A stretch of 32,000 bases of DNA from Opitutales bacterium (lineage in GTDB: Bacteria; Verrucomicrobiota; Verrucomicrobiia; Opitutales; UBA9783): contig JAKSVZ010000007.1 in assembly GCA_024407725.1 (NCBI GenBank), forward strand, positions 10,192-42,191, read 5' to 3'. How positions within the stretch are numbered: the stretch's first letter is position 1; each line of letters begins with the position of its first letter. A model generated the notes under the pieces. The model did not search any database and was not told where the DNA came from. It saw only the letters and a list, made by a program, of their open reading frames with translations. Made by a program: the position numbers and the translations under genes. Shown one piece after another: positions 2,730 to 32,000 of the stretch.

Positions 2730-4397
2730 TTAAGCATCCTTATGATAAACCTGATCAAAGGCATCGCTTAAGCTGGTCAATTCTTGTCCTGCCGGTATAG
2801 CATTCAAGGATTTAACCTCTTCAGAGAAGCGCGAATCATCGTACTTCAACGCCTTGGTCGACAAGCAAATACGACGCTCTTTCTTATCAATTTTAATGAT
2901 ACGAGCCTCGATTTCGTCTCCAACTTTATAGGTTTCCTTTAAGTTCTTACCTTGCAGATCTTCCATTTGAGCCATCGGGATGAATCCATCGATTCCTCCT
3001 TCAAAGCCTACAAACACACCACGTTCGATAACCTTAACAATCTTATTTTTAACGACTTTACCTACGTGATATAAGGTTTCAATGTCTTCCCATGGATCCT
3101 TGGTTAGCTGCTTAACGCCCAAAGAAATTTGATGCTTTTCGGTGTCCACGTCTAATACAACCGCTTCTACCTCATCGCCTTCCTTAAATAGATCACTGGG
3201 CTTATTAACTTTATGAGTCCAATCCATTTGGGATACGTGGATCATTCCATCAATCCCTTCTGCAAGCTTAACAAACACACCAAAGGGGGTTAAATTACAA
3301 ACCGTACCCTTTACACGAGCTCCCTTAGGATAATCATATTGAACGGTATCCCAAGGATTTTGGGTCAATTGACGCAAGCTGAGCAATAACGTTTGGGTAT
3401 CTTTATTAACCTCCACAACTTTAGCATCCACCTCATCCCCTTCGTGAAGCATTTCACTTGCCTTATGGAAGCGCTTGGTCCAAGATAACTCGCTCACCTT
3501 AATAAATCCTTCAAGACCCTCTGCAACCTTAACATAAGCGCCACGATCCAATACGGTAGAAACCGTTCCGTGAACCGTCATGCCAACAGGGAATTGTTGA
3601 TCCATATGTTCCCATGGGTTCTTCTGAAGCTGCTTCATACCAACCGAAATCCGTTCTTGTTCCAAATCGACTTCGATTACCATAACCTCAACCTCATCAC
3701 CCACTTTGAGCTTATCACTAGGACGAGCAATGCGCTCCCAAGAAATGTTGGTGATATGCAGGAATCCATCGATACCGTCGAGGTCAATAAAGGCTCCGAA
3801 ATCGGTAACGTTCTTCACGATTCCCTTGCAAACACAACCCACAGTCAGTTTGCTTAACGCTTCCTGACGCTTTTGTTTCCGATGGTCTTCAATCAATTCC
3901 CTACGTGAAACAACAATGTTCTTATGCGCGCGATTGATCTTGATAATTTTTACATCTACCGTTTGACCGATATACTGCTCTAAATTCTTAGGAGCTACCA
4001 CGTCCACATGAGAAGCTGGGCAAAAAGCATCAACACCGATATAGATAACCAAACCGCCATTGATTTTGGATTTGACCACTCCAGCTAACTCAGTGCCTTC
4101 GGAACATTTCTCCAAAATAATCTCCCAGTTCTTCTGTTGCTGCGCTCGGCTGTAAGATACCACCGGACGTCCATCGACTGATTCTACGCGATCCACATAA
4201 ACCTCAATCGAATCCCCAACCTTCATATCGTCCAACTGTAAAAATTCACTCGTTGGCACCAAGCACTCTGATTTTGCGCCGATATCTACGGTTACTCCAT
4301 CCTCGCGGATGCCGGTAATTGTTCCCGGAACAATACTATTGGCCTTTAACCGTTTAAAGGTGTCTGCATTCAACAGACGATCCATTACTTCTGACAT
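2730..4397 (-). CDS. rpsA: 30S ribosomal protein S1
   Basis: 555 aa ORF made of six tandem S1 OB-fold repeats with a recurring pattern (G..v.G.V......G.FV.l..gidG..h.S). Confidence 0.95.
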   Translation of the reverse strand: MSEVMDRLLNADTFKRLKANSIVPGTITGIREDGVTVDIGAKSECLVPTSEFLQLDDMKVGDSIEVYVDRVESVDGRPVVSYSRAQQQKNWEIILEKCSEGTELAGVVKSKINGGLVIYIGVDAFCPASHVDVVAPKNLEQYIGQTVDVKIIKINRAHKNIVVSRRELIEDHRKQKRQEALSKLTVGCVCKGIVKNVTDFGAFIDLDGIDGFLHITNISWERIARPSDKLKVGDEVEVMVIEVDLEQERISVGMKQLQKNPWEHMDQQFPVGMTVHGTVSTVLDRGAYVKVAEGLEGFIKVSELSWTKRFHKASEMLHEGDEVDAKVVEVNKDTQTLLLSLRQLTQNPWDTVQYDYPKGARVKGTVCNLTPFGVFVKLAEGIDGMIHVSQMDWTHKVNKPSDLFKEGDEVEAVVLDVDTEKHQISLGVKQLTKDPWEDIETLYHVGKVVKNKIVKVIERGVFVGFEGGIDGFIPMAQMEDLQGKNLKETYKVGDEIEARIIKIDKKERRICLSTKALKYDDSRFSEEVKSLNAIPAGQELTSLSDAFDQVYHKDA

Positions 4398-5569: not shown

Positions 5570-6211
5570 TTATCTGTCAACGTTTTTTCGCAACTTATTG
5601 AGCTCTTTTTGCTTATAGGCAACGAATTGCTCATAGGTACCAAGAGAATGCCGATAAAAGCATTTATGTACCCAACACGTTACTAACGCACACGCGATCC
5701 CAATAAGACTACCGCCGATACAAGCCAAGCAAAAGCCGCCAGCACCGATTGAAATCAAGGTTCCCCAAGAACCGCTTTTAATGGCCAACAGCAGGTCTTG
5801 CAAATTTGCCTGTTCAATAAAAGCTATACGGAACGGCAACCAACCACATAACCACTTACCCGTATAGAACTCCAGCGGGTACATAAATCCGATAGTCAAT
5901 GGGTTAGAAATCAACTGTAACGCAATTAAAACCAGCAAATTCGCGCGACACAGGAGCGCCAACAGAATCGCACAAGGAATTTGAATCCCCATCACTGGCC
6001 ACCAGGTCAAAATCCAACCGGCGTAATACGCATTACGCATGGATGGATAAGCAAACGACCATAGATAGGGAACGAAAAATAACGAACCAAATTTTCTAAA
6101 GATGAAATATTTCCGCAACGTGGCACGCGATGGGCAATAGCGCAAAAACTTCTTGATCCGCTGCCAACGCTTATTCCTTAAAACTTCCCACTCTTGCTTG
6201 AAAGGCTCCAT
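5570..6211 (-). CDS. DUF2062-family membrane protein
   Basis: 213 aa polytopic ORF. The segment WWPVMGIQIPCAILLALLCRANLLVLIALQLISNPLTIGFMYPLEFYTG matches the characteristic DUF2062 core (..r.N......q..sNPlT..p.y). Confidence 0.65.
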   Translation of the reverse strand: MEPFKQEWEVLRNKRWQRIKKFLRYCPSRATLRKYFIFRKFGSLFFVPYLWSFAYPSMRNAYYAGWILTWWPVMGIQIPCAILLALLCRANLLVLIALQLISNPLTIGFMYPLEFYTGKWLCGWLPFRIAFIEQANLQDLLLAIKSGSWGTLISIGAGGFCLACIGGSLIGIACALVTCWVHKCFYRHSLGTYEQFVAYKQKELNKLRKNVDR

Positions 6212-19401: not shown

Positions 19402-20439
19402 ATGGGCATTGAAACTAATCCACAAGCAATCCATTCTCAGATAGAATTAACTCAACCTAATGAGAATGTTAATGATAACTCAATCTCTGTATCTCAACAG
19501 GCAATTGTTAAAAATATAAACCTAGCAACCAAATCGTTGGCTAATATGCACGAGGCTGGGAAAGCACACTCCGTAAGCATCACCGATAAAACACAAGGGA
19601 AAGGTATTTTGGGGCGCATCAACCAAGTTTTCCAAAATATCGTACATAACCTTAAGCATTTATTCTCCACCCAAAGCGGCATCGTAAAATCCCTCAATCA
19701 GAGCGTCACCGATCTAACTAACGCAACCGACCAAATCATGTATTCCTATAAAGATATTTCAAAAGACCAACAGCAAACGTTGGTGAACAATCTTGCAAAT
19801 ACCTTTGTAAAAACCGCTAATACCCTACAGCAAATCATCGGAACCGATCTTCCATTAAACGACATAGCTGAGTATTGTAATGACCTTGTTTGGAGTAATA
19901 ATGAACCCGATCCTGAGAAAGAAGCCTTAACTCAAGCATTAAATTTAGCAAACAAACCCGTAAATAAAGCAATTGTCGATTGCTTATGCTCAATGACCCG
20001 TCTTCAGCTTGCAATTGATTTGGCTGCTCGTTCAGAAACAAGGTCATCAAGCGCAATAGATAACAATGTACAGAACCAATCAGTTGAAAAACAGCAACCC
20101 ATCAGCTTCAAATTTGAAAGCGACGAAGAATCATTTATCGATGACATAGATTACCATCCCCTAACCGACCGAGAGCTAGAAGCCTCAATCCAAACAGGGA
20201 TGAAAACTCTGCGTACTTACATGCCAAAATTTCAACCGAATGCTGCTATAAGCGATATATTAACCCAAGACGAAAGTAGTCCAGAAGAGATCTGCCAACA
20301 ATTATCCATCGATACGAACTCATTAAATCCGGATCAAGTCAAAGACGTGAACAATCAAATCGAAGAATTACAACACAATCTTGGGATACAAGCCTTACGC
20401 AACGATCCAGACGTAATACAGTTGGATAAAGACGAATAA
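19402..20439 (+). CDS. Hypothetical Asn/Gln-rich protein, paralog 1 of a tandem pair (no signal peptide or TM)
   Basis: 345 aa ORF. Its N-terminal ~95 aa align with the next ORF (e.g. SLANMHEAGKAHSV.. vs SLANMHEADKTRLV..). Shared central (NKAIVDCL/NKAITDCL) and C-terminal (QQLSIDTNSL/QQLGINTSSL) blocks are also present. Confidence 0.7.
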   Translation: MGIETNPQAIHSQIELTQPNENVNDNSISVSQQAIVKNINLATKSLANMHEAGKAHSVSITDKTQGKGILGRINQVFQNIVHNLKHLFSTQSGIVKSLNQSVTDLTNATDQIMYSYKDISKDQQQTLVNNLANTFVKTANTLQQIIGTDLPLNDIAEYCNDLVWSNNEPDPEKEALTQALNLANKPVNKAIVDCLCSMTRLQLAIDLAARSETRSSSAIDNNVQNQSVEKQQPISFKFESDEESFIDDIDYHPLTDRELEASIQTGMKTLRTYMPKFQPNAAISDILTQDESSPEEICQQLSIDTNSLNPDQVKDVNNQIEELQHNLGIQALRNDPDVIQLDKDE

Positions 20440-20504
20440 TACTCAACATTGTAGGATTCTACCGCATCCCATTGAACCATAAACACTCCCTATAACCTAA
20501 CACC

Positions 20505-21959
20505 ATGGCCATCCAAAATAATTCTCAAGTAAGCAATCCCCAGATTGAACAATTCAACCAACCCAATGCAAACGTTGGTAATAATTCCATCGCTATCGCT
20601 AACAATGCAATTATTAAAAACGTAAATTCATTAACGACGCAATCGTTGGCTAACATGCACGAAGCAGATAAAACACGCTTGGTAACGCTTACCCATAATA
20701 CAGAAGGCAAGAGCTTTTTCGGACGTATTCAACAAATCGCCATTAATATCGCGCACAACATTAAACATTTAGTATTTAAGGATTTTCAAGCGAGCGCTAT
20801 ACATGTGCTCAACAACAGCACCGCCGAACTGACTTTAATGGGGGAACAAATCCTACGTTCAAATATAGAGTTTTCACAATTGGAAAAAAAGGATTTGAAT
20901 AAAACTCTAATCAAGACCGCTAACCAAACCTATAATACCTTAAAGCAAATCATAGGTTTTCAAGATGGAGATTTTAAATGGGTAGGAGGAACTCTATTCA
21001 AATCTAATTTCGTTATTAACAACAACAATCACTTAACCTCAAAATTAAACGAGCCACTTAACAAAGCAATTACTGATTGCTTAAGTGCTTTAGACGGTCT
21101 CCAACAGGTGATTAACAGAGAGCATAGCAAAGCAACAAACGCTTCAAACTCTACCAATAATAACGTTCAAAACACCCCCATTGAGCAACCTAAGGCAGCT
21201 GAACCCGAAGCGATCAAAGAAGAACCCGCTCCATCCAATCTTCAAAATCCTGAACCTCAGTTGAAAAATGATTCTGAAGTAAAACAGCCTGTTCACTCAG
21301 AACCTATCCAAAACGAACCTATTCCTCAATCGGACGATTCATTCGAGGGAATGATTGATACGCTTTATAAACACATACCATCCGGTACGATCGAGTCTAA
21401 AGAAGCATTAATTTCGTTATTAACCAAGAGCAGTGATTTAGAAGGAACCCTCCAACAACTGGGGATTAATACCTCCTCATTACCTGACAATCTCATGGAT
21501 GATTTACAAAATGAAATAATTTTGCAAAGTATTATCGCTAGCTCCCAAGCATCTTCTTCCGAAGAACAACCCGTTCAGCCTTCAAATCCATCTACAAACG
21601 GGGTAGCTTCACCTATTGAAAACCCAAATCTTCCAGTGGAAGACTCAAGTTCGCCAGTAGTAGAAAACAAGTCCTCAAACAACAATTCATCAGGGAAAGT
21701 CACCAATAATAAGGGGAAAACCGGAACGAATCCGTCAGTGAATAAATCCAAAAAGGCAAAGAAGAAAACCCCTAGTTATTTAAAATCAACCCAAGCAACT
21801 CGTAATAAAGTTTCGACTAAAAAGACCCATGCAAGCGAAAAAGCATTTGCAAAAGTCTCGGAATTCAACATCGACAGAAGCAAGTTAGACCGCAAAGGAG
21901 GCCTAACCCACGATGAGCCTTATCAAGCACCCAATGCAAATCCTTTTGAGAGGAAGTAA
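20505..21959 (+). CDS. Hypothetical Asn/Gln/Pro-rich protein, paralog 2, with a Lys-rich C-terminal tail
   Basis: 484 aa ORF homologous to 19402-20439. It also has a Pro/Glu-rich low-complexity insert and a basic tail (..NKSKKAKKKTPSYLKSTQATRNKVSTKKTH..). Confidence 0.7.
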   Translation: MAIQNNSQVSNPQIEQFNQPNANVGNNSIAIANNAIIKNVNSLTTQSLANMHEADKTRLVTLTHNTEGKSFFGRIQQIAINIAHNIKHLVFKDFQASAIHVLNNSTAELTLMGEQILRSNIEFSQLEKKDLNKTLIKTANQTYNTLKQIIGFQDGDFKWVGGTLFKSNFVINNNNHLTSKLNEPLNKAITDCLSALDGLQQVINREHSKATNASNSTNNNVQNTPIEQPKAAEPEAIKEEPAPSNLQNPEPQLKNDSEVKQPVHSEPIQNEPIPQSDDSFEGMIDTLYKHIPSGTIESKEALISLLTKSSDLEGTLQQLGINTSSLPDNLMDDLQNEIILQSIIASSQASSSEEQPVQPSNPSTNGVASPIENPNLPVEDSSSPVVENKSSNNNSSGKVTNNKGKTGTNPSVNKSKKAKKKTPSYLKSTQATRNKVSTKKTHASEKAFAKVSEFNIDRSKLDRKGGLTHDEPYQAPNANPFERK

Positions 21960-24974: not shown

Positions 24975-26234
24975 ATGTTAGATATTCACTATTTTCGTAC
25001 GTCCTTTGACGAAGTTTGCCGTCGATTGGCCACCAAACATTTTACGTGCGATTTACAACAAGTTGCCCAATTGGATAAGGCACGCGTAGAACAACAGCAA
25101 GCATTTGAAGCCTCAAAAGCCGAACTGAATGCCTTAAGTAAAAACCTAGGTAAATTGGACCCAAAATCCCCTGCATTGGCCCAAGCTCGGTAGCAAGCAA
25201 CCGCCCTTTCTAAAGTTACCAAAGAAAAAGAAGCCGCGTATAAGCAGGCCGAACAAGCATTTAAAGAAACTTGGCTCAGCATTCCGAACGTACCAGCTCC
25301 ATCCGTTCCCGTCGGCAAAAGCGATAAGGATAACGTTGAGCTGTATCAATGGCATCCACAAAACGAGGATTTTTCCCACGCCTGCCCTCATTACGATCTG
25401 CCCAATTTCGAACAAAAAATCGACTTTTCGCGCGGTTCTAAAGTCATGGGTGCTGGCTTTCCGTTTTATGTCGGCGAACTCGCCTATTTGGTACGCGCGT
25501 TAATTGCATTCTTTTTGGATTCTGCCCGCAAAAACGGTTATTTGGAAATCCTACCGCCCCTATTGGTTAACGCCGACAGCGCATTGGCAACCGGTCAGCT
25601 GCCCGATAAAGAAAACATGATGTATCGCACGGACGAAGGCTATTTAATTCCAACCGCCGAAGTTCCCATCACGAATTTTTACCGCAATGAAATTTTCACC
25701 GAAGCAGATTTGCCCATCAAACGTTGCGCTTATTCCGCCTGTTTCCGCCGTGAAGCTGGCAGTTGGGGTAAAGATGTACGGGGATTAAACCGACTGCATC
25801 AGTTCGACAAAGTAGAATTGGTTCAATGGGTTTTGCCACAGGAAAGCACCCAAGCGTTGTTAACATTAAGGTCCCACGCAGAAGATTTGCTTAAACAATT
25901 GGAAATCCCCTACCGCGTGCTAGCCATTTGCACCGGAGATATGGGCTTCCCCCATGCCGAACAATACGATTTGGAGGTCTGGGCAGCCGGACAACAACGT
26001 TGGTTGGAAGTATCCAGCTGCAGCTGCTTTACCGATTTTCAGGCAAGGCGCGCCAACATCCGTTACAAAACGAGCTCGGGCAACCTAGAATTTGTTCATA
26101 CCCTGAATGGCTCTGGACTCGCTATTCCACGCGTATTAGCAGCTATTCTTGAAAACAATCACCGCGGCAATGGCGAAATTAGTATTCCATCGGTTTTACA
26201 CAAATGGTTACCGATGACTAAAATCCATTTTTAA
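24975..26234 (+). pseudogene. serS: Seryl-tRNA synthetase reading frame interrupted by one in-frame TAG at 25191-25193
   Basis: ORFs 24975-25193 and 25446-26234 are in the same frame. The stretch between them translates without further stops to QATALSKVTKEKEAAYKQAEQAFKETWLSIPNVPAPSVPVGKSDKDN..., the canonical SerRS arm/core junction. The total is 420 codons, a normal SerRS length. Confidence 0.85.
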
Positions 26235-26299: not shown

Positions 26300-27142
26300 A
26301 TGAAGCTTTTTAAACAATTATTGTTCATCAGTTCTAGCGTGGTAACATTTCCATTGTATGCTGGAGAAGCAGCATCAACAGCCGAAGGTATACAAAATCC
26401 ACCCGTAGCTGAAGCTGCAAAAAATGCAAACGAAGCGAAAGCTCCTCTTTCTCAAGAACAGAAATTACTCCATTTCAAGACACTTGGATGGATGCAATTC
26501 ATGCAAAGCGGCCTCAAAAACCTAGATATGCAAGGTCAAGAAGCTGAAGCATTCATGGCTGGAATTAAATCCGCCTTGAATAATGAAAAAGCTCCCTGTG
26601 ATTTAGGCGCCAGCATGGATGATTTACAAAAATTTATGCAAGAACGCTTTTCAGAAAACGAGAAAAAACGTCAGGCAGAAATCAAAACAACCGCTGCCAA
26701 AAACCGTGCTGCTGGTGAAGCTTGGCTCAAGGATGTCCTTTCCAAAGATTCATCCATTAAAAAGACCCTTTCCGGCTTAGCCTATAAAATTAAGCGCAGC
26801 GGAAATAAAGCACGTGTAGCCGACGAAGATAAGGTTGAAATCCTATACGTAGGTAAGCGCATTGATGGTAGCGTTTTCGACCGTTCGGATAACAAAAAAC
26901 CTGTAACTTTGAACATCAAGAACGTTATTGCTGGTATCAAAGAAGGGTTAGCGTTGATCGGTGAAGGCGGAGAAATCGTACTCTACACACCGGATAATTT
27001 AGCCTACGGAGAATATGATATCCCCGATATCCCAGCAGGTTCCACCTTGGTATTTGAAATCAAATTGCAGAAGGTTATCAAACCGGTTCAAGAAGAAACC
27101 GCAACTCCAGCTGCTAAATCAGAAGCGCAAAAGCCAAACTAA
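26300..27142 (+). CDS. mip: Mip-type FKBP peptidyl-prolyl cis-trans isomerase with signal peptide
   Basis: 280 aa ORF with an N-terminal signal-like MKLFKQLLFISSSVVTFPLYA, a helical FKBP_N-like region, and a C-terminal FKBP domain (..YVGKRIDGSVFD...GIKEGLALIGEGGEIVLYTP..AYGE...IPAGSTLVFEIKL). Confidence 0.88.
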   Translation: MKLFKQLLFISSSVVTFPLYAGEAASTAEGIQNPPVAEAAKNANEAKAPLSQEQKLLHFKTLGWMQFMQSGLKNLDMQGQEAEAFMAGIKSALNNEKAPCDLGASMDDLQKFMQERFSENEKKRQAEIKTTAAKNRAAGEAWLKDVLSKDSSIKKTLSGLAYKIKRSGNKARVADEDKVEILYVGKRIDGSVFDRSDNKKPVTLNIKNVIAGIKEGLALIGEGGEIVLYTPDNLAYGEYDIPDIPAGSTLVFEIKLQKVIKPVQEETATPAAKSEAQKPN

Positions 27143-27150
27143 TTGGCTTT
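27130..27150. terminator. Bidirectional hairpin T1 overlapping the mip stop codon
   Basis: Stem AAAGCCAA/TTGGCTTT with a 5 nt loop that contains the TAA stop. A-run and T-run flanks make it usable from both strands, although the U-tracts are short. Confidence 0.55.
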
Positions 27151-27156
27151 GCGTTT

Positions 27157-27260
27157 AGGCTTGACTCAACAAGCACTTGTTCGGTAAAATGTCCATGACC
27201 ATTTATGGAGCAAGATATAATGTTTTGATTGTAAGCATAAGCTCCATCATAGTCAAGCCT
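27157..27260. repeat. Convergent-promoter cassette U1 (IR AGGCTTGACT / AGTCAAGCCT, 84 nt spacer)
   Basis: Perfect 10 bp inverted repeat. Plus strand: TTGACT(27161-66)-18-TAAAAT(27185-90). Minus strand: TTGACT(27256-51)-17-TACAAT(27233-28). Confidence 0.75.
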
Positions 27261-27474
27261 TTTGCTTACACCCCCTTTTTTTAAACTATCATTCAAGCCT
27301 TTCCATGGGAGTTAGTCCAAATAGGATGGTCATGGCATCCTAAAGCACGCCAACATCCTCCTTGGGTACCCCATCCGGTAGTATTTTTAGGATTTTTTCT
27401 GAGTTTTCCGAAGAGGAACTAGGTTAAATTTTCAACCCAAAACAATAAACAAAACACCCATTCGCGCCTTTTTA

Positions 27475-27573
27475 GCTTGACAAAATTGCTGCTGGTGGTG
27501 TATTAATATGTTGTACTCTTCACCATTGGCAAATGATTTCATGAATATGAATAGAGACTTTTACAGGTCTAAG
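27475..27573. repeat. Decayed cassette U2a (GCTTGAC / GTCTAAG, 85 nt spacer)
   Basis: Plus strand: TTGACA(27477-82)-18-TATTAA. Minus strand: TTAGAC(27572-67)-17-CATATT. The right arm has a 1 nt insertion relative to GTCAAG, but the family spacing is retained. Confidence 0.5.
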
Positions 27574-27724
27574 AATTCATGCGTTTTGCAAGTAGCAGGT
27601 ACTTAAACCATCTAATAATGCCATATAGTATAAGATTATATCACATCCTATTAGGGTATCTTTATAATCGGCATTCATATAAAACAAGCATTACTCATCA
27701 GCTTCTATCAATCCAACCAGTGAT

Positions 27725-27753
27725 ATTGTAATAAATTCATGACTAAGCGTCAA
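27725..27753 (-). promoter_or_regulatory. Orphan near-consensus sigma-70-type promoter (right-arm-like CGTCAAGG)
   Basis: The minus strand reads TTGACG-cttagtcatgaatttat(17)-TACAAT. No recognisable left arm is present 85 nt upstream. Confidence 0.5.
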
Positions 27754-27893
27754 GGTTTATTACAAAGGCCCAAGCAAATACCGATAATTGCTCAAAAGGT
27801 AAGCAATAAACGCTAATCTCTTTATACAAGCTTGTACTTTATCCAATTTACGATAAGTGGGCGCCGCGGAATATTGACAAGGCATGCTATCTC

Positions 27894-27978
27894 GGTATTT
27901 TGAAGAATTTCAGAAGGTTATCTGACCGGTTCAAGAAGAAACCGCAATCCAATTAAAGCTGAAGAACAAAAGCCGAAT
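27894..27978 (+). pseudogene. Remnant copy of the mip 3' end
   Basis: 27911-27947 matches mip 27068-27104 at 35 of 37 positions by hand alignment. One of the two changes creates an in-frame TGA. The flanks align more loosely (ggtattt.gaa... upstream, caaaagcc downstream). Confidence 0.7.
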
Positions 27979-27991
27979 TCATTCGGCTTTT
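27968..27991. terminator. Bidirectional hairpin T3, homologous to T1
   Basis: Stem AAAAGCCGA/TCGGCTTTT with a 6 nt loop. It sits in the same position relative to the mip remnant and cassette U3 as T1 does relative to mip and U1. Confidence 0.6.
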
Positions 27992-27995
27992 CCTT

Positions 27996-28100
27996 AAAGC
28001 TTGACAATGAGTGGGATTCTTGATAAAAGTATGATCCCCATTTAGTCGCAATGACCCAATAAATGAATTTTATATTTAAACTCAACAAAGGTCAAGCTTT
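27996..28100. repeat. Convergent-promoter cassette U3 (IR AAAGCTTGAC / GTCAAGCTTT, 85 nt spacer)
   Basis: Perfect 10 bp inverted repeat. Plus strand: TTGACA(28001-06)-17-TAAAAG(28024-29), preceded by TGa (extended -10). Minus strand: TTGACC(28095-90)-17-TAAAAT(28072-67). Confidence 0.75.
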
Positions 28101-28228
28101 TACTGCGTAGAGTCATAACACAAATACCTTACTGAGTCATGAAACAAAATAATACGGTATAATTAAGGTATTCAAATTGGTTCTCGTCAGTATTTTGCAT
28201 CAAAAAATCCATTGGCTGTGCTTTTAAA

Positions 28229-28325
28229 CCTTAACAGCTAGCGGTAGAGTTAAAATTACTTTGACTCATCAAGAACTGCATGTGTATAAGTTGATTTTAC
28301 GCCTGAAGCTTACCAGAGGCAAGCT
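28229..28325. repeat. Probable decayed cassette U3b (CCTTAAC / G-CAAGC, about 83 nt spacer)
   Basis: The right end AGGCAAGCTTT equals the U3 right arm minus one T. On the minus strand it still gives TTGCCT-17-TAAAAT (28322-28294). The left end aaaCCTTAACa resembles the left arm with G->A. Confidence 0.35.
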
Positions 28326-28382
28326 TTATTTGATTCCATAAATAAAAAAGCGGAGATACACAAACAAGGATTAAAACCTTCG

Positions 28383-28408
28383 AAAAGCCGCATTAAATCG
28401 CGGTTTTT
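28383..28408. terminator. Bidirectional hairpin T4, homologous to T1 and T3
   Basis: AAAAGCCGC-attaaatc-GCGGTTTTT forms a 9 bp stem including one G:U pair, followed by a 5 U run on the plus strand. Confidence 0.55.
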
Positions 28409-28421
28409 GAAGCATTTTTAA

Positions 28422-28521
28422 ACTTGACGAATGGGGAAAAGTTCTATATAATAGAAAAATTCTATTCCTCTTAGATCATATAGCACAAAAATTATATATA
28501 ATATCCTACTGAAAGTCAAGT
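28422..28521. repeat. Convergent-promoter cassette U4 (IR ACTTGAC / GTCAAGT, 86 nt spacer)
   Basis: Plus strand: TTGACG(28424-29)-17-TATAAT(28447-52). Minus strand: TTGACT(28519-14)-17-TATAAT(28496-91). Both -10 boxes are consensus. The cassette ends 20 nt from the stop codon of the sigma-54 activator gene. Confidence 0.75.
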
Positions 28522-28540
28522 CTGATTTAATAGCCTAAGC

Positions 28541-29839
28541 CTATAAAAGATGGTACTTTTGGAGTTTACGATAAAGTGTGCGCCGTGGGATATTCAGCAA
28601 ACGAGCCACCTCGGATTTATTGCCATTGGTTTTTTGAAGCATTTGACGCAACATAGACGCCTCATCTTGCGAAAATCCTATTGATACTTCGGGAGCTAAG
28701 AATTTTGCATCCAAATCCGATAAAGTAATGGGATTACCTGCATGCATAATCACTGCATTTTCAGCAAAATTGCGCAATTCGCGGACATTGCCAGGCCACA
28801 GATAATCTTCCAACACACCGGCAACTTCGGGCGACAGAACAGGAGCTTTTAAATGGTTTTCGCGCGCAAAAACTTTTAAGTAGTGCTGAACCAAAGGAAC
28901 GATATCCTCCCGACGCTCTCTTAAAGATGGTACGTGGATTTCAACCACATTGAGTCGATAATACAAATCCTGACGAAAACGCCCCTGTTCCACCTCGGTT
29001 TTTAGATTCCGATTGGTGGCACATACCAAGCGTACATCTAGGTAAATCGGCTGAGTTCCTCCTACGCGCTCAATGGTTTTTGTCTCCAAAAAGCGCAACA
29101 GTTTGATTTGAGTCGGCAAATCGATTTCGCCAATTTCATCCAAAAACAAGGTACCATTTTGTGCCGTTTCGAACAAACCGATACGGCGTTGCAAAGCGCC
29201 TGTAAAAGCACCGCGCTCATAACCAAACAGACCTGATTCCAACAAATTCACTGGTAAAGCCGCGCAGTGGATGGGCACAAATTTTTCAGCAGCGCGCGTA
29301 CTCAGTTGATGCAATTGCTGTGCTACCAATTCCTTACCGGTTCCGGTTTCGCCGGTAATCAACACGGTTGTTTTGGTCGGAGCTACCAATTGAATTTGCT
29401 GCATCAATCGATTGAACGCAGGAGACGAACCCAGCATGTTCGGATTTGCCTCTAACGATGCAGCCGGTTTTTCAGGATTATAACGCTCGGTCATCGCACG
29501 CTCAACCATGGCTTCCAGTTGCTCCAACTGAATGGGTTTACTGATAAAATCATAAGCCCCATGTTTCATAGCCTCCACAGCCACCTCAATGGTCCCATAA
29601 GCCGTCATCAGGATGCAGATTGGATGATTGGGTAATTGCAGCGTTTTATCGATTACGCTCATTCCGCTCGCCTGCCCCATGCGCAAATCCGTAATAACCA
29701 CCGCAAAACGTTCGGTATCCAGCAACCGAAAGGCTTCTTCGGGCGACGATGCGGTAAACACATCAAACTTGTCCTCAAACGCCTGCGCTAAGCCATCGCG
29801 CGTATGTTTTTCGTCATCAACAATCAGTAAGCGTTCCAT
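28541..29839 (-). CDS. Sigma-54-dependent response regulator (NtrC/AtoC/CtcC type: REC + AAA+ + Fis-type HTH)
   Basis: REC domain (LIVDDE...VITDLRM), AAA+ domain with Walker A GETGTGKE and the sigma-54 contact loop ERGAFTGA, and a C-terminal HTH (NKSEVARLLNIPRRTLYRKL). The start is chosen at MERLLIVDDE (29839), which removes the overlap with plsC. Confidence 0.9.
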   Translation of the reverse strand: MERLLIVDDEKHTRDGLAQAFEDKFDVFTASSPEEAFRLLDTERFAVVITDLRMGQASGMSVIDKTLQLPNHPICILMTAYGTIEVAVEAMKHGAYDFISKPIQLEQLEAMVERAMTERYNPEKPAASLEANPNMLGSSPAFNRLMQQIQLVAPTKTTVLITGETGTGKELVAQQLHQLSTRAAEKFVPIHCAALPVNLLESGLFGYERGAFTGALQRRIGLFETAQNGTLFLDEIGEIDLPTQIKLLRFLETKTIERVGGTQPIYLDVRLVCATNRNLKTEVEQGRFRQDLYYRLNVVEIHVPSLRERREDIVPLVQHYLKVFARENHLKAPVLSPEVAGVLEDYLWPGNVRELRNFAENAVIMHAGNPITLSDLDAKFLAPEVSIGFSQDEASMLRQMLQKTNGNKSEVARLLNIPRRTLYRKLQKYHLL

Positions 29840-31729: not shown

Positions 31730-31850
31730 AAACGCCCCCATTTCAATGGGATAATCCCTACAAAAATATTGAAAATACTACCTAGAAAATTTCCTTTAAA
31801 AAATATCGGAAAATACAAAATCCAAAACAAACTTACTTTTCCCTTCTAAG

Positions 31851-31949
31851 GCTTGACAAACAAGTAAATTGATGGTAAATTATAAATACTCTAGGATTTA
31901 CAAGACTCAATTATATATATTTTAATTGTAAATACTCCTCTAGTCAAGC
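31851..31949. repeat. Convergent-promoter cassette U5 (IR GCTTGAC / GTCAAGC, 85 nt spacer), dispersed copy
   Basis: Plus strand: TTGACA(31853-58)-17-TAAATT. Minus strand: TTGACT(31947-42)-17-TAAAAT(31924-19). It lies 3.3 kb from the main array and 120 nt after tRNA-Gly. Confidence 0.7.
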
Positions 31950-32000
31950 TTTTAAGCATTGTGGCAATCAACAGCCTCAAGCAATAATCGCTATTAAAAC

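Follow-up and report, generated by a model that had tools for sequence, protein, structure and literature searches.

The closest described system to the DNA elements reported here is the helD/pps locus of Bacillus subtilis, a convergent dual-promoter "rifampicin alarm" (Sudzinova et al., NAR 2026, PMC12802891). Its start sites lie 39 bp apart, a 17-bp shortening abolishes regulation, and regulation acts via interference between the two promoters, not via RNA sequence (PMC12802891). The Panti-helD RNA is ∼90 nucleotides (nt) long, and of its two terminators the more distal one probably doubles as the terminator of the upstream gene (PMC12802891). Here we describe ∼100-bp cassettes, bounded by inverted arms of the type GCTTGAC/GTCAAGC, in a 32,000-nt stretch of an Opitutales genome (Verrucomicrobiota; assembly GCA_024407725.1, contig JAKSVZ010000007.1, positions 10,192-42,191; hereafter the window). 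Cassettes U1, U3 and U4 occupy the spacer between the convergent mip (FKBP) gene and a sigma-54 response regulator (activator) gene, and cassette U5 lies 3.3 kb away beside tRNA genes. We see about an even chance that each cassette carries a pair of near-consensus, face-to-face promoters for the housekeeping sigma factor.

Face-to-face promoters also form the switches of coliphages 186 (pR/pL) and P2 (Pe/Pc). The Ecl18kI restriction-modification system has face-to-face promoters in a divergent gene pair (PMC2760811). These systems share with our cassettes convergent sigma-70 promoters tens of bp apart, overlapping starts and mutual interference, all of which are predictions in our case. Their promoters, however, each serve a gene and have a repressor operator between or over them, whereas the genes flanking our cassettes are convergent or co-directional, the cassette centre shows no operator-like conservation, and the unit recurs. 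A first-pass annotation of the stretch knew of no described element with this layout; that statement does not hold, since convergent pairs are known (helD/pps, PMC12802891; Ecl18kI, PMC2760811).

Results

The pattern GCTTGAC-N(80-90)-GTCAAGC occurs three times in the window (27159-27258, 27999-28097 and 31851-31949), with 0.00 occurrences expected from 100 dinucleotide shuffles. The shorter arms CTTGAC...GTCAAG add 28423-28520, giving four matches in the window against none expected, and the excess over shuffled background proposed in the first-pass annotation is thus borne out. Written as CTTGAC-N85/86-GTCAAG, the units start at 27160, 28000, 28423 and 31852, and the gap between the 6-mer arms is 86 nt in U1 and U4 and 85 nt in U3 and U5. 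No other unit with 85-86-nt spacing is found in the whole 32 kb when up to two mismatches are allowed. The fixed spacing claimed earlier stands, but its figures of 84-86 nt differ from ours by 1-2 nt, purely because the arms were delimited in another way. Intact cassettes from the window and its relatives have gaps of 85-87 nt; decayed copies carry indels. U1 spans 27157-27260 (arms AGGCTTGACT and AGTCAAGCCT, 10/10), U3 spans 27996-28100 (arms AAAGCTTGAC and GTCAAGCTTT, 10/10), U4 spans 28420-28523 (arms ACTTGAC and GTCAAGT) and ends ∼20 nt from the activator stop codon, and U5, at a position termed Gly-A below, spans 31849-31951, ∼120 nt downstream of tRNA-Gly(CCC). The arm consensus aaRGCTTGAC corresponds to a -35 hexamer, TTGACN, together with an A-rich stretch just upstream of it.

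All eight -35/-10 pairs named in the first-pass annotation are present as written. On the plus strand these are TTGACT-18-TAAAAT in U1 (-35 at 27161-27166, -10 at 27185-27190), TTGACA-17-TAAAAG in U3 (28001-28006 and 28024-28029), TTGACG-17-TATAAT in U4 (28424-28429 and 28447-28452) and TTGACA-17-TAAATT in U5 (31853-31858 and 31876-31881). The minus-strand pairs are TTGACT-17-TACAAT in U1 (27256-27251 and 27233-27228), TTGACC-17-TAAAAT in U3 (28095-28090 and 28072-28067), TTGACT-17-TATAAT in U4 (28519-28514 and 28496-28491) and TTGACT-17-TAAAAT in U5 (31947-31942 and 31924-31919). U4 comes closest to the textbook promoter, with 11/12 consensus positions on each strand. The two -10 boxes of a cassette lie 37-40 bp apart. 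We propose that the TTGACN of each arm would act as a -35 element and a TAnAAT hexamer 17 ± 1 bp inside it as the -10 element, once per strand.

We assessed the positional enrichment of the -10 boxes in six cassettes (U1, U3, U4, U5 and the two intact ones of the related sequence L118), that is, in 12 half-cassettes. The L118 cassettes were located from their arms alone, and the L118 mip gene is 83% identical to that of the window. A -10-like hexamer was defined as xAxxxT with at least four positions matching TATAAT at a spacer of 16-18 from TTGAC. Such a hexamer is present in 10 of the 12 half-cassettes, with a peak at spacer 17, as compared with 2.4 half-cassettes on average and at most 8 in 20,000 shuffles of the interiors, and the rate of -10-like hexamers at other offsets in the same cassettes is 0.25. 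The enrichment at 17 ± 1 put forward in the first-pass annotation is therefore found. As an outside control we used >100 unrelated sequences from other genomes, matched for arms and spacing and found with GCTTGAC-N84-86-GTCAAGCYTTT; among the matches listed, which come from unrelated taxa (Collinsella, Streptococcus and others), only two (L014 and L036) have -10-like hexamers on both arms.

Information content in the cassettes is confined to the short A-rich stretch, to RGCTTGAC and to TAAAAT. Compared in register, the interiors are 29-48% identical, against 32% for random sequence, in line with the earlier view that they share no alignable sequence and that geometry is conserved without them. 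Promoter matches of at least 10/12 number 17 in the window, 10 of which fall in the cassette spacers. We rejected a decayed long palindrome as a description of the unit: arms and -10 boxes aside, the left half of the cassette is not the reverse complement of the right.

Boxes of the same kind precede housekeeping genes of the clade. Between infC and its divergent neighbour lies a spacer with 92% conservation across four lineages, and in all four it holds an invariant TTGACA-18-TATACT site that faces infC. AGGCTTGAC is found upstream of tRNA-Gly(GCC), where AGGCTTGACG lies ∼35 nt upstream of the gene in three lineages and AGACTTGACG takes its place in a fourth, and GTTGACA precedes tRNA-Met. 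A sigma-70-type reading of the cassette arms is therefore reasonable. Of the earlier proposal of face-to-face promoters in each cassette, the part that stands is that arms and -10 geometry would fit a housekeeping-sigma promoter on each strand; a specific role in interference appears less certain than the promoter pair as such.

The tRNA upstream regions share a further motif, TTGCGAAA, 8-9 nt before the TTGAC box (window ∼5575-5600, upstream of tRNA-Met; L118 12240-12256; L116 14323-14339), of which a variant, TTGCGCAC, is found upstream of tRNA-Cys. The tRNA-Gly(GCC) region has CATTGT at 18 nt instead of a TATAAT-like -10. Upstream regions of the TTGCGAAA type may represent a second promoter layout in the clade.

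Comparison with related loci points to a local origin of the array. The mip/activator spacer measures 1,399 nt in the window, compared with 136 nt in L116, 187 nt in L118 and 176 nt in L137, and the relatives have a single cassette in it. By self-alignment, 27063-27165, which comprises the mip 3' end, its terminator and the left arm of U1, recurs at 27906-28005 (80% over 104 nt), and the activator 3' end at 28542-28614 recurs at 27823-27895 (73% over 74 nt). The second copies are gene remnants: 27906-27950 corresponds to the mip 3' end on the plus strand (93% over 42 nt), and 27823-27895 to the activator 3' end on the minus strand, the latter also being 83% identical to L116 10966-11018. Both gene ends were thus duplicated along with the cassette, and the spacer grew by tandem duplication of the whole convergent junction. 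A terminator-like hairpin precedes each of U1, U3 and U4, and earlier duplications thus copied the terminator along with the cassette. That of the mip gene (27126-27153) folds on both strands (-12.9 kcal/mol plus, -13.7 kcal/mol minus; z -3.8 and -4.3) and ends 3 nt before U1. Its duplicate directly before U3 (27968-27991) does likewise (-11.8 and -13.2 kcal/mol; z -4.8 and -4.0). The hairpin directly before U4 (28383-28410) has a T5 run on the plus strand (-11.9 kcal/mol, z -2.4) and is weak on the minus strand. Such hairpins abut the left arm of U1, U3 and U4, and not that of U5 or of the L118 cassette L118b.

Decayed units fill part of the remaining spacer, and the two reported in the first-pass annotation were recovered. 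U2a (27475-27573) has kept its left arm, GCTTGACA, from which an 18-nt spacer leads to TATTAA, and its right arm has degenerated (GTCTAAG). U3b (28229-28325) has altered arms (CCTTAAC...GGCAAGC) with a gap of ∼82 nt; it has lost ∼3 nt from its plus-strand spacer and still carries TTGCCT-17-TAAAAT on the minus strand. Tentatively, we add a possible decayed cassette, U2b (27640-27755), with ATCACA-17-TATAAT (plus) and TTGACG-17-TACAAT (minus), which is ∼17 nt longer than the intact units. The mip/activator spacer of L116 has a single cassette, now decayed, which can be aligned to the right-hand portions of both U1 (71%) and U4. Tandem segmental duplication of one ancestral cassette, and not mobility, gave rise to the five or six copies of the 1.4-kb spacer, and as products of duplication the members of this "family" are therefore paralogues. 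The dispersed family pictured earlier is not borne out. Between U1, U3 and U4 the spacers changed freely in length, and the interiors of these cassettes have drifted to 36-43% identity, yet both arms, all six -10 boxes and the 85-86-nt distance were kept.

The inter-cassette spacers have no match in the window or in the related loci by blastn or tblastx. One segment between U1 and U2a (27290-27400) is visibly richer in GC than its surroundings. The earlier statement that the spacer holds no credible open reading frame (ORF) is upheld: four ORFs of 41-60 amino acids are present, none with a Pfam match at E <= 0.1.

This history bears on whether the cassettes are miniature inverted-repeat transposable elements (MITEs) that carry promoters, one of the roles suggested in the first-pass annotation. 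Neisseria Correia elements are promoter-bearing MITEs that share their whole sequence, are flanked by target duplications and occur in hundreds of copies; their promoters form at or near the element ends and drive adjacent genes. Our cassettes resemble them in their terminal inverted repeats, ∼100-bp size, promoter elements and intergenic location at two loci. They differ in sharing no interior beyond the random level and in having no target-site duplications (no direct repeats in the flanks), they are seen at two loci only in the ∼50 kb of clade sequence sampled, and their promoter-like boxes do not follow the Correia arrangement. Moreover, the mip-locus copies arose by a segmental duplication that included gene fragments, cassette positions are orthologous across lineages, the further 17 kb of the L139 lineage hold no cassette, neither transposase nor recombinase is found among the scanned ORFs of at least 100 amino acids, and there are no plasmid or phage matches. 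We consider a mobile element very improbable.

In ∼50 kb of non-redundant syntenic clade sequence sampled, cassettes are found in two intergenic spacers only. The alignment of the spacer after tRNA-Gly(CCC) across lineages defines two cassette positions, Gly-A and Gly-B. Gly-A is intact in the window, decayed in L137 (GTTTGAC...ATCAATC, with a 12-nt deletion) and absent from L118 and L116; Gly-B is intact in L118 and L139, decayed in L137 and mostly deleted in L116. At the mip locus the cassette is decayed in L116 (arms CTTAAC...TTAAG) and in L137 (left arm lacking GAC). At orthologous positions, related lineages hold cassettes that agree in arms and geometry and differ in their interiors. Another ∼17 kb rightwards in L139 or L137 yielded no additional cassette, and neither did the loci of more distant relatives. 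A metagenome scan with a stricter palindromic promoter pattern, which catches about half of the known copies, returned 8 matches, none from Opitutales, and so offered no hint of a widespread family. The cassette is thus an old feature of this genus-level group, kept in some lineages and lost in others, and confined to two neighbouring spacers on present sampling.

Where arms were lost at the mip locus, a hairpin stands out. The left-centre of the former cassette forms a perfect 25-bp hairpin flanked by A and T runs in L137 (1135-1190, z -10.5) and a perfect 16-bp hairpin in L116 (10873-10907, z -8.5); in L118 and U1 this hairpin is imperfect. In L116 and L137, a two-way terminator would seem to have replaced or outlived the promoter pair. 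In a further relative, L119 (GCA_003521725.1), gene calling places no sigma-54 activator between mip and the acyltransferase gene (2796-4353), and yet similarity to the activator 3' end persists in this DNA (78.6% over 173 nt); the activator may be a pseudogene or a gene-calling miss.

Decay raises the question whether the cassettes are promoter-like DNA with no dedicated role, an ancestral palindrome that was duplicated locally, persists for a while and either binds polymerase unproductively or is inert. In the L116 and L137 lineages the orthologues have decayed or been deleted, three window copies are decayed, the array grew by duplication, and the spacer is AT-rich with many promoter-like matches. 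There is also precedent in the promoter islands of E. coli, AT-rich stretches packed with promoter-like sites that do not serve genes (PMC3661553, PMC7054387). Our spacer likewise is an AT-rich non-coding stretch with dense, strong promoter-like sites; the islands, however, are irregular, overlapping and tied to horizontally acquired DNA, whereas the cassettes have one promoter-like site per strand, a fixed palindromic geometry and a housekeeping neighbourhood. A role-free origin also sits poorly with the retention of -35 boxes, -10 boxes and 85-86-nt spacing in U1, U3 and U4 while the interiors drifted, and with the similar retention amid interior drift seen between the window and L118 at the mip locus; such retention needs purifying selection in those lineages. 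On balance we hold this explanation to be rather unlikely.

The arms themselves could be the functional part. They might pair in read-through RNA or in single-stranded DNA and form a long stem over an 85-nt structured loop, serving as a terminator, an insulator or an attC-like recombination site. The inverted repeat of 7-10 bp exceeds the -35 hexamer, a T-run follows the right arm in five of the six cassettes, whole-cassette folds are closed by the arm stem (z -1.6 to -4.3), the cassettes are located at gene 3' ends, and two symmetrical arm changes would preserve pairing (A...T for G...C in U4; CTTAA...TTAAG in L116, where TTGAC has become TTAAC in both arms). Against this, the arm changes in U3b, L137 Gly-A and L139 are not pair-preserving, the interiors have no common structure, a second paired box extending the stem is missing from U1, U4 and U5 (U3 alone has a short second stem), and the -10-like hexamers at 17 ± 1 bp on both strands are left unexplained. 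Integron attC sites have RYYYAAC/GTTRRRY boxes around a variable interior, measure 57-141 bp and occur in arrays, and -10 boxes are not a feature of them. Our units are similar in their 7-bp inverted core (GCTTGAC/GTCAAGC), variable interior, size and arrangement in arrays. They have the triplets GAC/GTC in place of AAC/GTT, however, and show no inner L''/L' paired box in U1, U4 and U5; between the units there are no gene cassettes (the ORFs there not being credible), no integrase is found among the scanned ORFs, and Rfam gives no match. Arm pairing as the main function seems to us distinctly unlikely. An intrinsic terminator proper, a short GC-rich hairpin with a 3-8-nt loop and a T-run, was rejected for the cassettes: the arms stand 85 nt apart, and prediction returned no terminator-like site in them. 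The separate hairpins to the left of U1, U3 and U4 do fit that form.

Alternatively, the arms could be half-sites for a DNA-binding regulator that loops or bridges ∼90 bp, the adjacent sigma-54 activator being the candidate. The invariant inverted arms at a fixed distance would suit such a protein, and next to the main locus lies the gene of a response regulator that has a Fis-type helix-turn-helix (HTH) domain. Enhancer-binding proteins use closely spaced inverted repeats, however, which counts against half-sites this far apart; the sigma-54 promoter motif TGGCAC-N5-TTGC has 18 matches where ∼28 are expected, none of them in the spacers; the second locus lies 3.3 kb off, beside tRNA genes; and the -10 enrichment would again go unexplained. 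We regard this explanation as improbable. An enhancer (upstream activating sequence, UAS) for the sigma-54 activator was rejected: sigma-54 promoters (GG-N10-GC) are absent from the spacers and their borders, and fewer matches occur than shuffled sequence gives on average.

The contig belongs to the metagenome-assembled genome (MAG) of an uncultured horse-gut Opitutales bacterium and is also present in a horse-gut sequencing run; the FKBP (mip) protein of the window is identical to one from Opitutales bacterium MAG GCA_024500545.1. Pfam identifies in the window a MutL C-terminal domain, ribosomal protein S1, enolase, TGT, an amino-acid-kinase-family protein, PrmC, a SerRS class II core domain, mip, the sigma-54 response regulator, an acyltransferase, a deaminase and an AlgH-like protein, and gyrA, gyrB and the ribosome recycling factor (RRF) were identified through synteny with relatives. 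Seven tRNA genes are present. No reverse-transcriptase domain is found among the scanned ORFs either. In Rfam 15 only the tRNAs reach the gathering score in the window, and 27000-28700 yields nothing better than E = 0.5. A tRNA relic was rejected, ARAGORN finding no tRNA in the cassettes. The seryl-tRNA synthetase gene serS (24975-26234) has an in-frame stop at 25191-25193 (codon 73; AQAR*QATAL, compared with AKARQQATTL in relatives, where the codon encodes Gln) in a frame otherwise intact over 419 codons; the stop could reflect an error of assembly or sequencing, a nonsense mutation at strain level, or stop-codon read-through. Between gyrB and the RRF gene (19402-21959) lie two ORFs of 345 and 484 amino acids without a Pfam match; this position holds two unannotated genes in L118 and none in L116, and marks a variable insertion in a syntenic block.

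Discussion

As a sequence feature, the cassette architecture is real, non-random and conserved within the clade. How a pair of promoters so arranged would work can be outlined from standard promoter geometry. Since the -10 boxes lie 37-40 bp apart, the predicted start sites would be ∼25-28 bp apart, with the two RNAs overlapping there. This distance would be too short for two side-by-side open complexes, so that one polymerase at a time would be expected on a cassette, and with each start within reach of the other's open complex, mutual exclusion or interference should result. Transcription to the left would cross the left arm and stop at the two-way hairpin in front of U1, U3 and U4, yielding a transcript of ∼90-100 nt. 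Transcription to the right would continue out of the cassette; its product would be antisense to the sigma-54 response regulator in the ancestral one-cassette mip locus, and at Gly-B would extend in the direction of tRNA-Gly(GCC) and an ABC transporter operon. Competition between the promoters would then set the level of outgoing or antisense transcription. As the interiors are unconstrained, the act of transcription or the binding of polymerase should matter, not the sequence of the RNA. The folds of the predicted long rightward RNAs are unremarkable (z -1.4 and -2.8).

Like helD/pps, a cassette would combine two convergent housekeeping-sigma promoters, each with -35 and -10 boxes 16-20 bp apart, at a distance of 45-100 bp, here as a sequence match only. 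Both systems are intergenic and placed just after the terminator of an upstream gene. The antisense RNA of helD/pps is short; a comparable leftward product would be predicted for U1, U3 and U4, where a hairpin abuts the left arm, but not for U5 or L118b. The predicted start-site distance differs from the 39 bp of helD/pps, a distance that lets both promoters be occupied. In addition, helD/pps drives a downstream gene, whereas U1-U4 lie between convergent genes; a co-oriented downstream gene within 300 bp is found only at the L118 tRNA-Gly locus, with tRNA-Gly(GCC) and the ABC transporter operon. The -35 regions of our cassettes form a perfect inverted repeat of 7-10 bp, unlike those of helD/pps, and induction of the sense promoter by sub-inhibitory rifampicin and unequal promoter kinetics are features of helD/pps that we do not ascribe to the cassettes. 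The cassettes appear to be a local, duplicated variant of known convergent-promoter arrangements, from which they differ in geometry and in the absence of a driven gene.

Two other face-to-face layouts were seen outside the clade. Unrelated contigs of 56-58% GC from the metagenome scan, which carry a divergent transketolase/GntR-type gene pair (L128 1593-1698, L130 3947-4052, L133 8453-8558 and L134 2250-2355), have GCTTGACA -35 boxes 90 nt apart, face to face across the palindrome GGTTAACCAATTAATGGTTAA; to judge by this layout, the promoters form a facing pair around an operator at the centre. Two Candidatus Poribacteria sequences (L036 2301-2400 and L071 1608-1707) hold orthologous arm-matched units, with TTGACA-18-TATAAT facing TTGACG-17-AATCAT. 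The L036 unit lies ∼85 nt upstream of a gene for an 863-amino-acid protein, a layout that resembles helD.

Several observations weigh against a promoter pair as the function of our cassettes. The conserved arm runs 2-4 nt beyond the -35 hexamer, whereas the GC found there is missing from the infC promoter; the arm may serve for more than contact with sigma. The two symmetrical arm changes fit arm pairing. At the mip locus the plus-strand -10 box lies inside the hairpin that is perfect where arms were lost (L116 and L137), and some of the interior there may thus belong to a terminator and not to a promoter. Downstream of the mip/activator cassettes there is no gene for them to drive. Orthologues are decayed in two of four lineages, so the cassette is dispensable, and U1, U3 and U4 are paralogues, so the enrichment set holds fewer than six independent examples. 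Taking these points with the position of the -10 boxes, we leave the face-to-face promoter pair at the even chance stated at the outset.

A further-reaching proposal is that the cassette is a self-contained, gene-less, palindromic two-promoter part, selected for its geometry, that admits one polymerase at a time and acts as a switch or barrier at gene ends. Such a part might fire antisense transcription into either neighbour or block read-through, and would multiply via local duplication. To our knowledge, a gene-independent promoter pair has not been described as a recurring genomic element, and we offer the proposal as an unlikely but serious possibility.

Should the promoters turn out to be inactive, the locus would be a clean example of promoter-like DNA that arises, duplicates and decays between convergent genes. 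If they are active, it would be a natural case in which selection keeps a promoter arrangement and not any product, because the interiors drift freely, the spacing is held within 2 nt and loss of an arm is accompanied by loss of length, and because the predicted start-site distance falls in the range where the helD study found polymerases to exclude each other. The cassette would then test a regime of transcriptional interference different from that of helD/pps, and would provide an initial picture of promoter architecture and antisense control among the uncultured Verrucomicrobiota of the gut.

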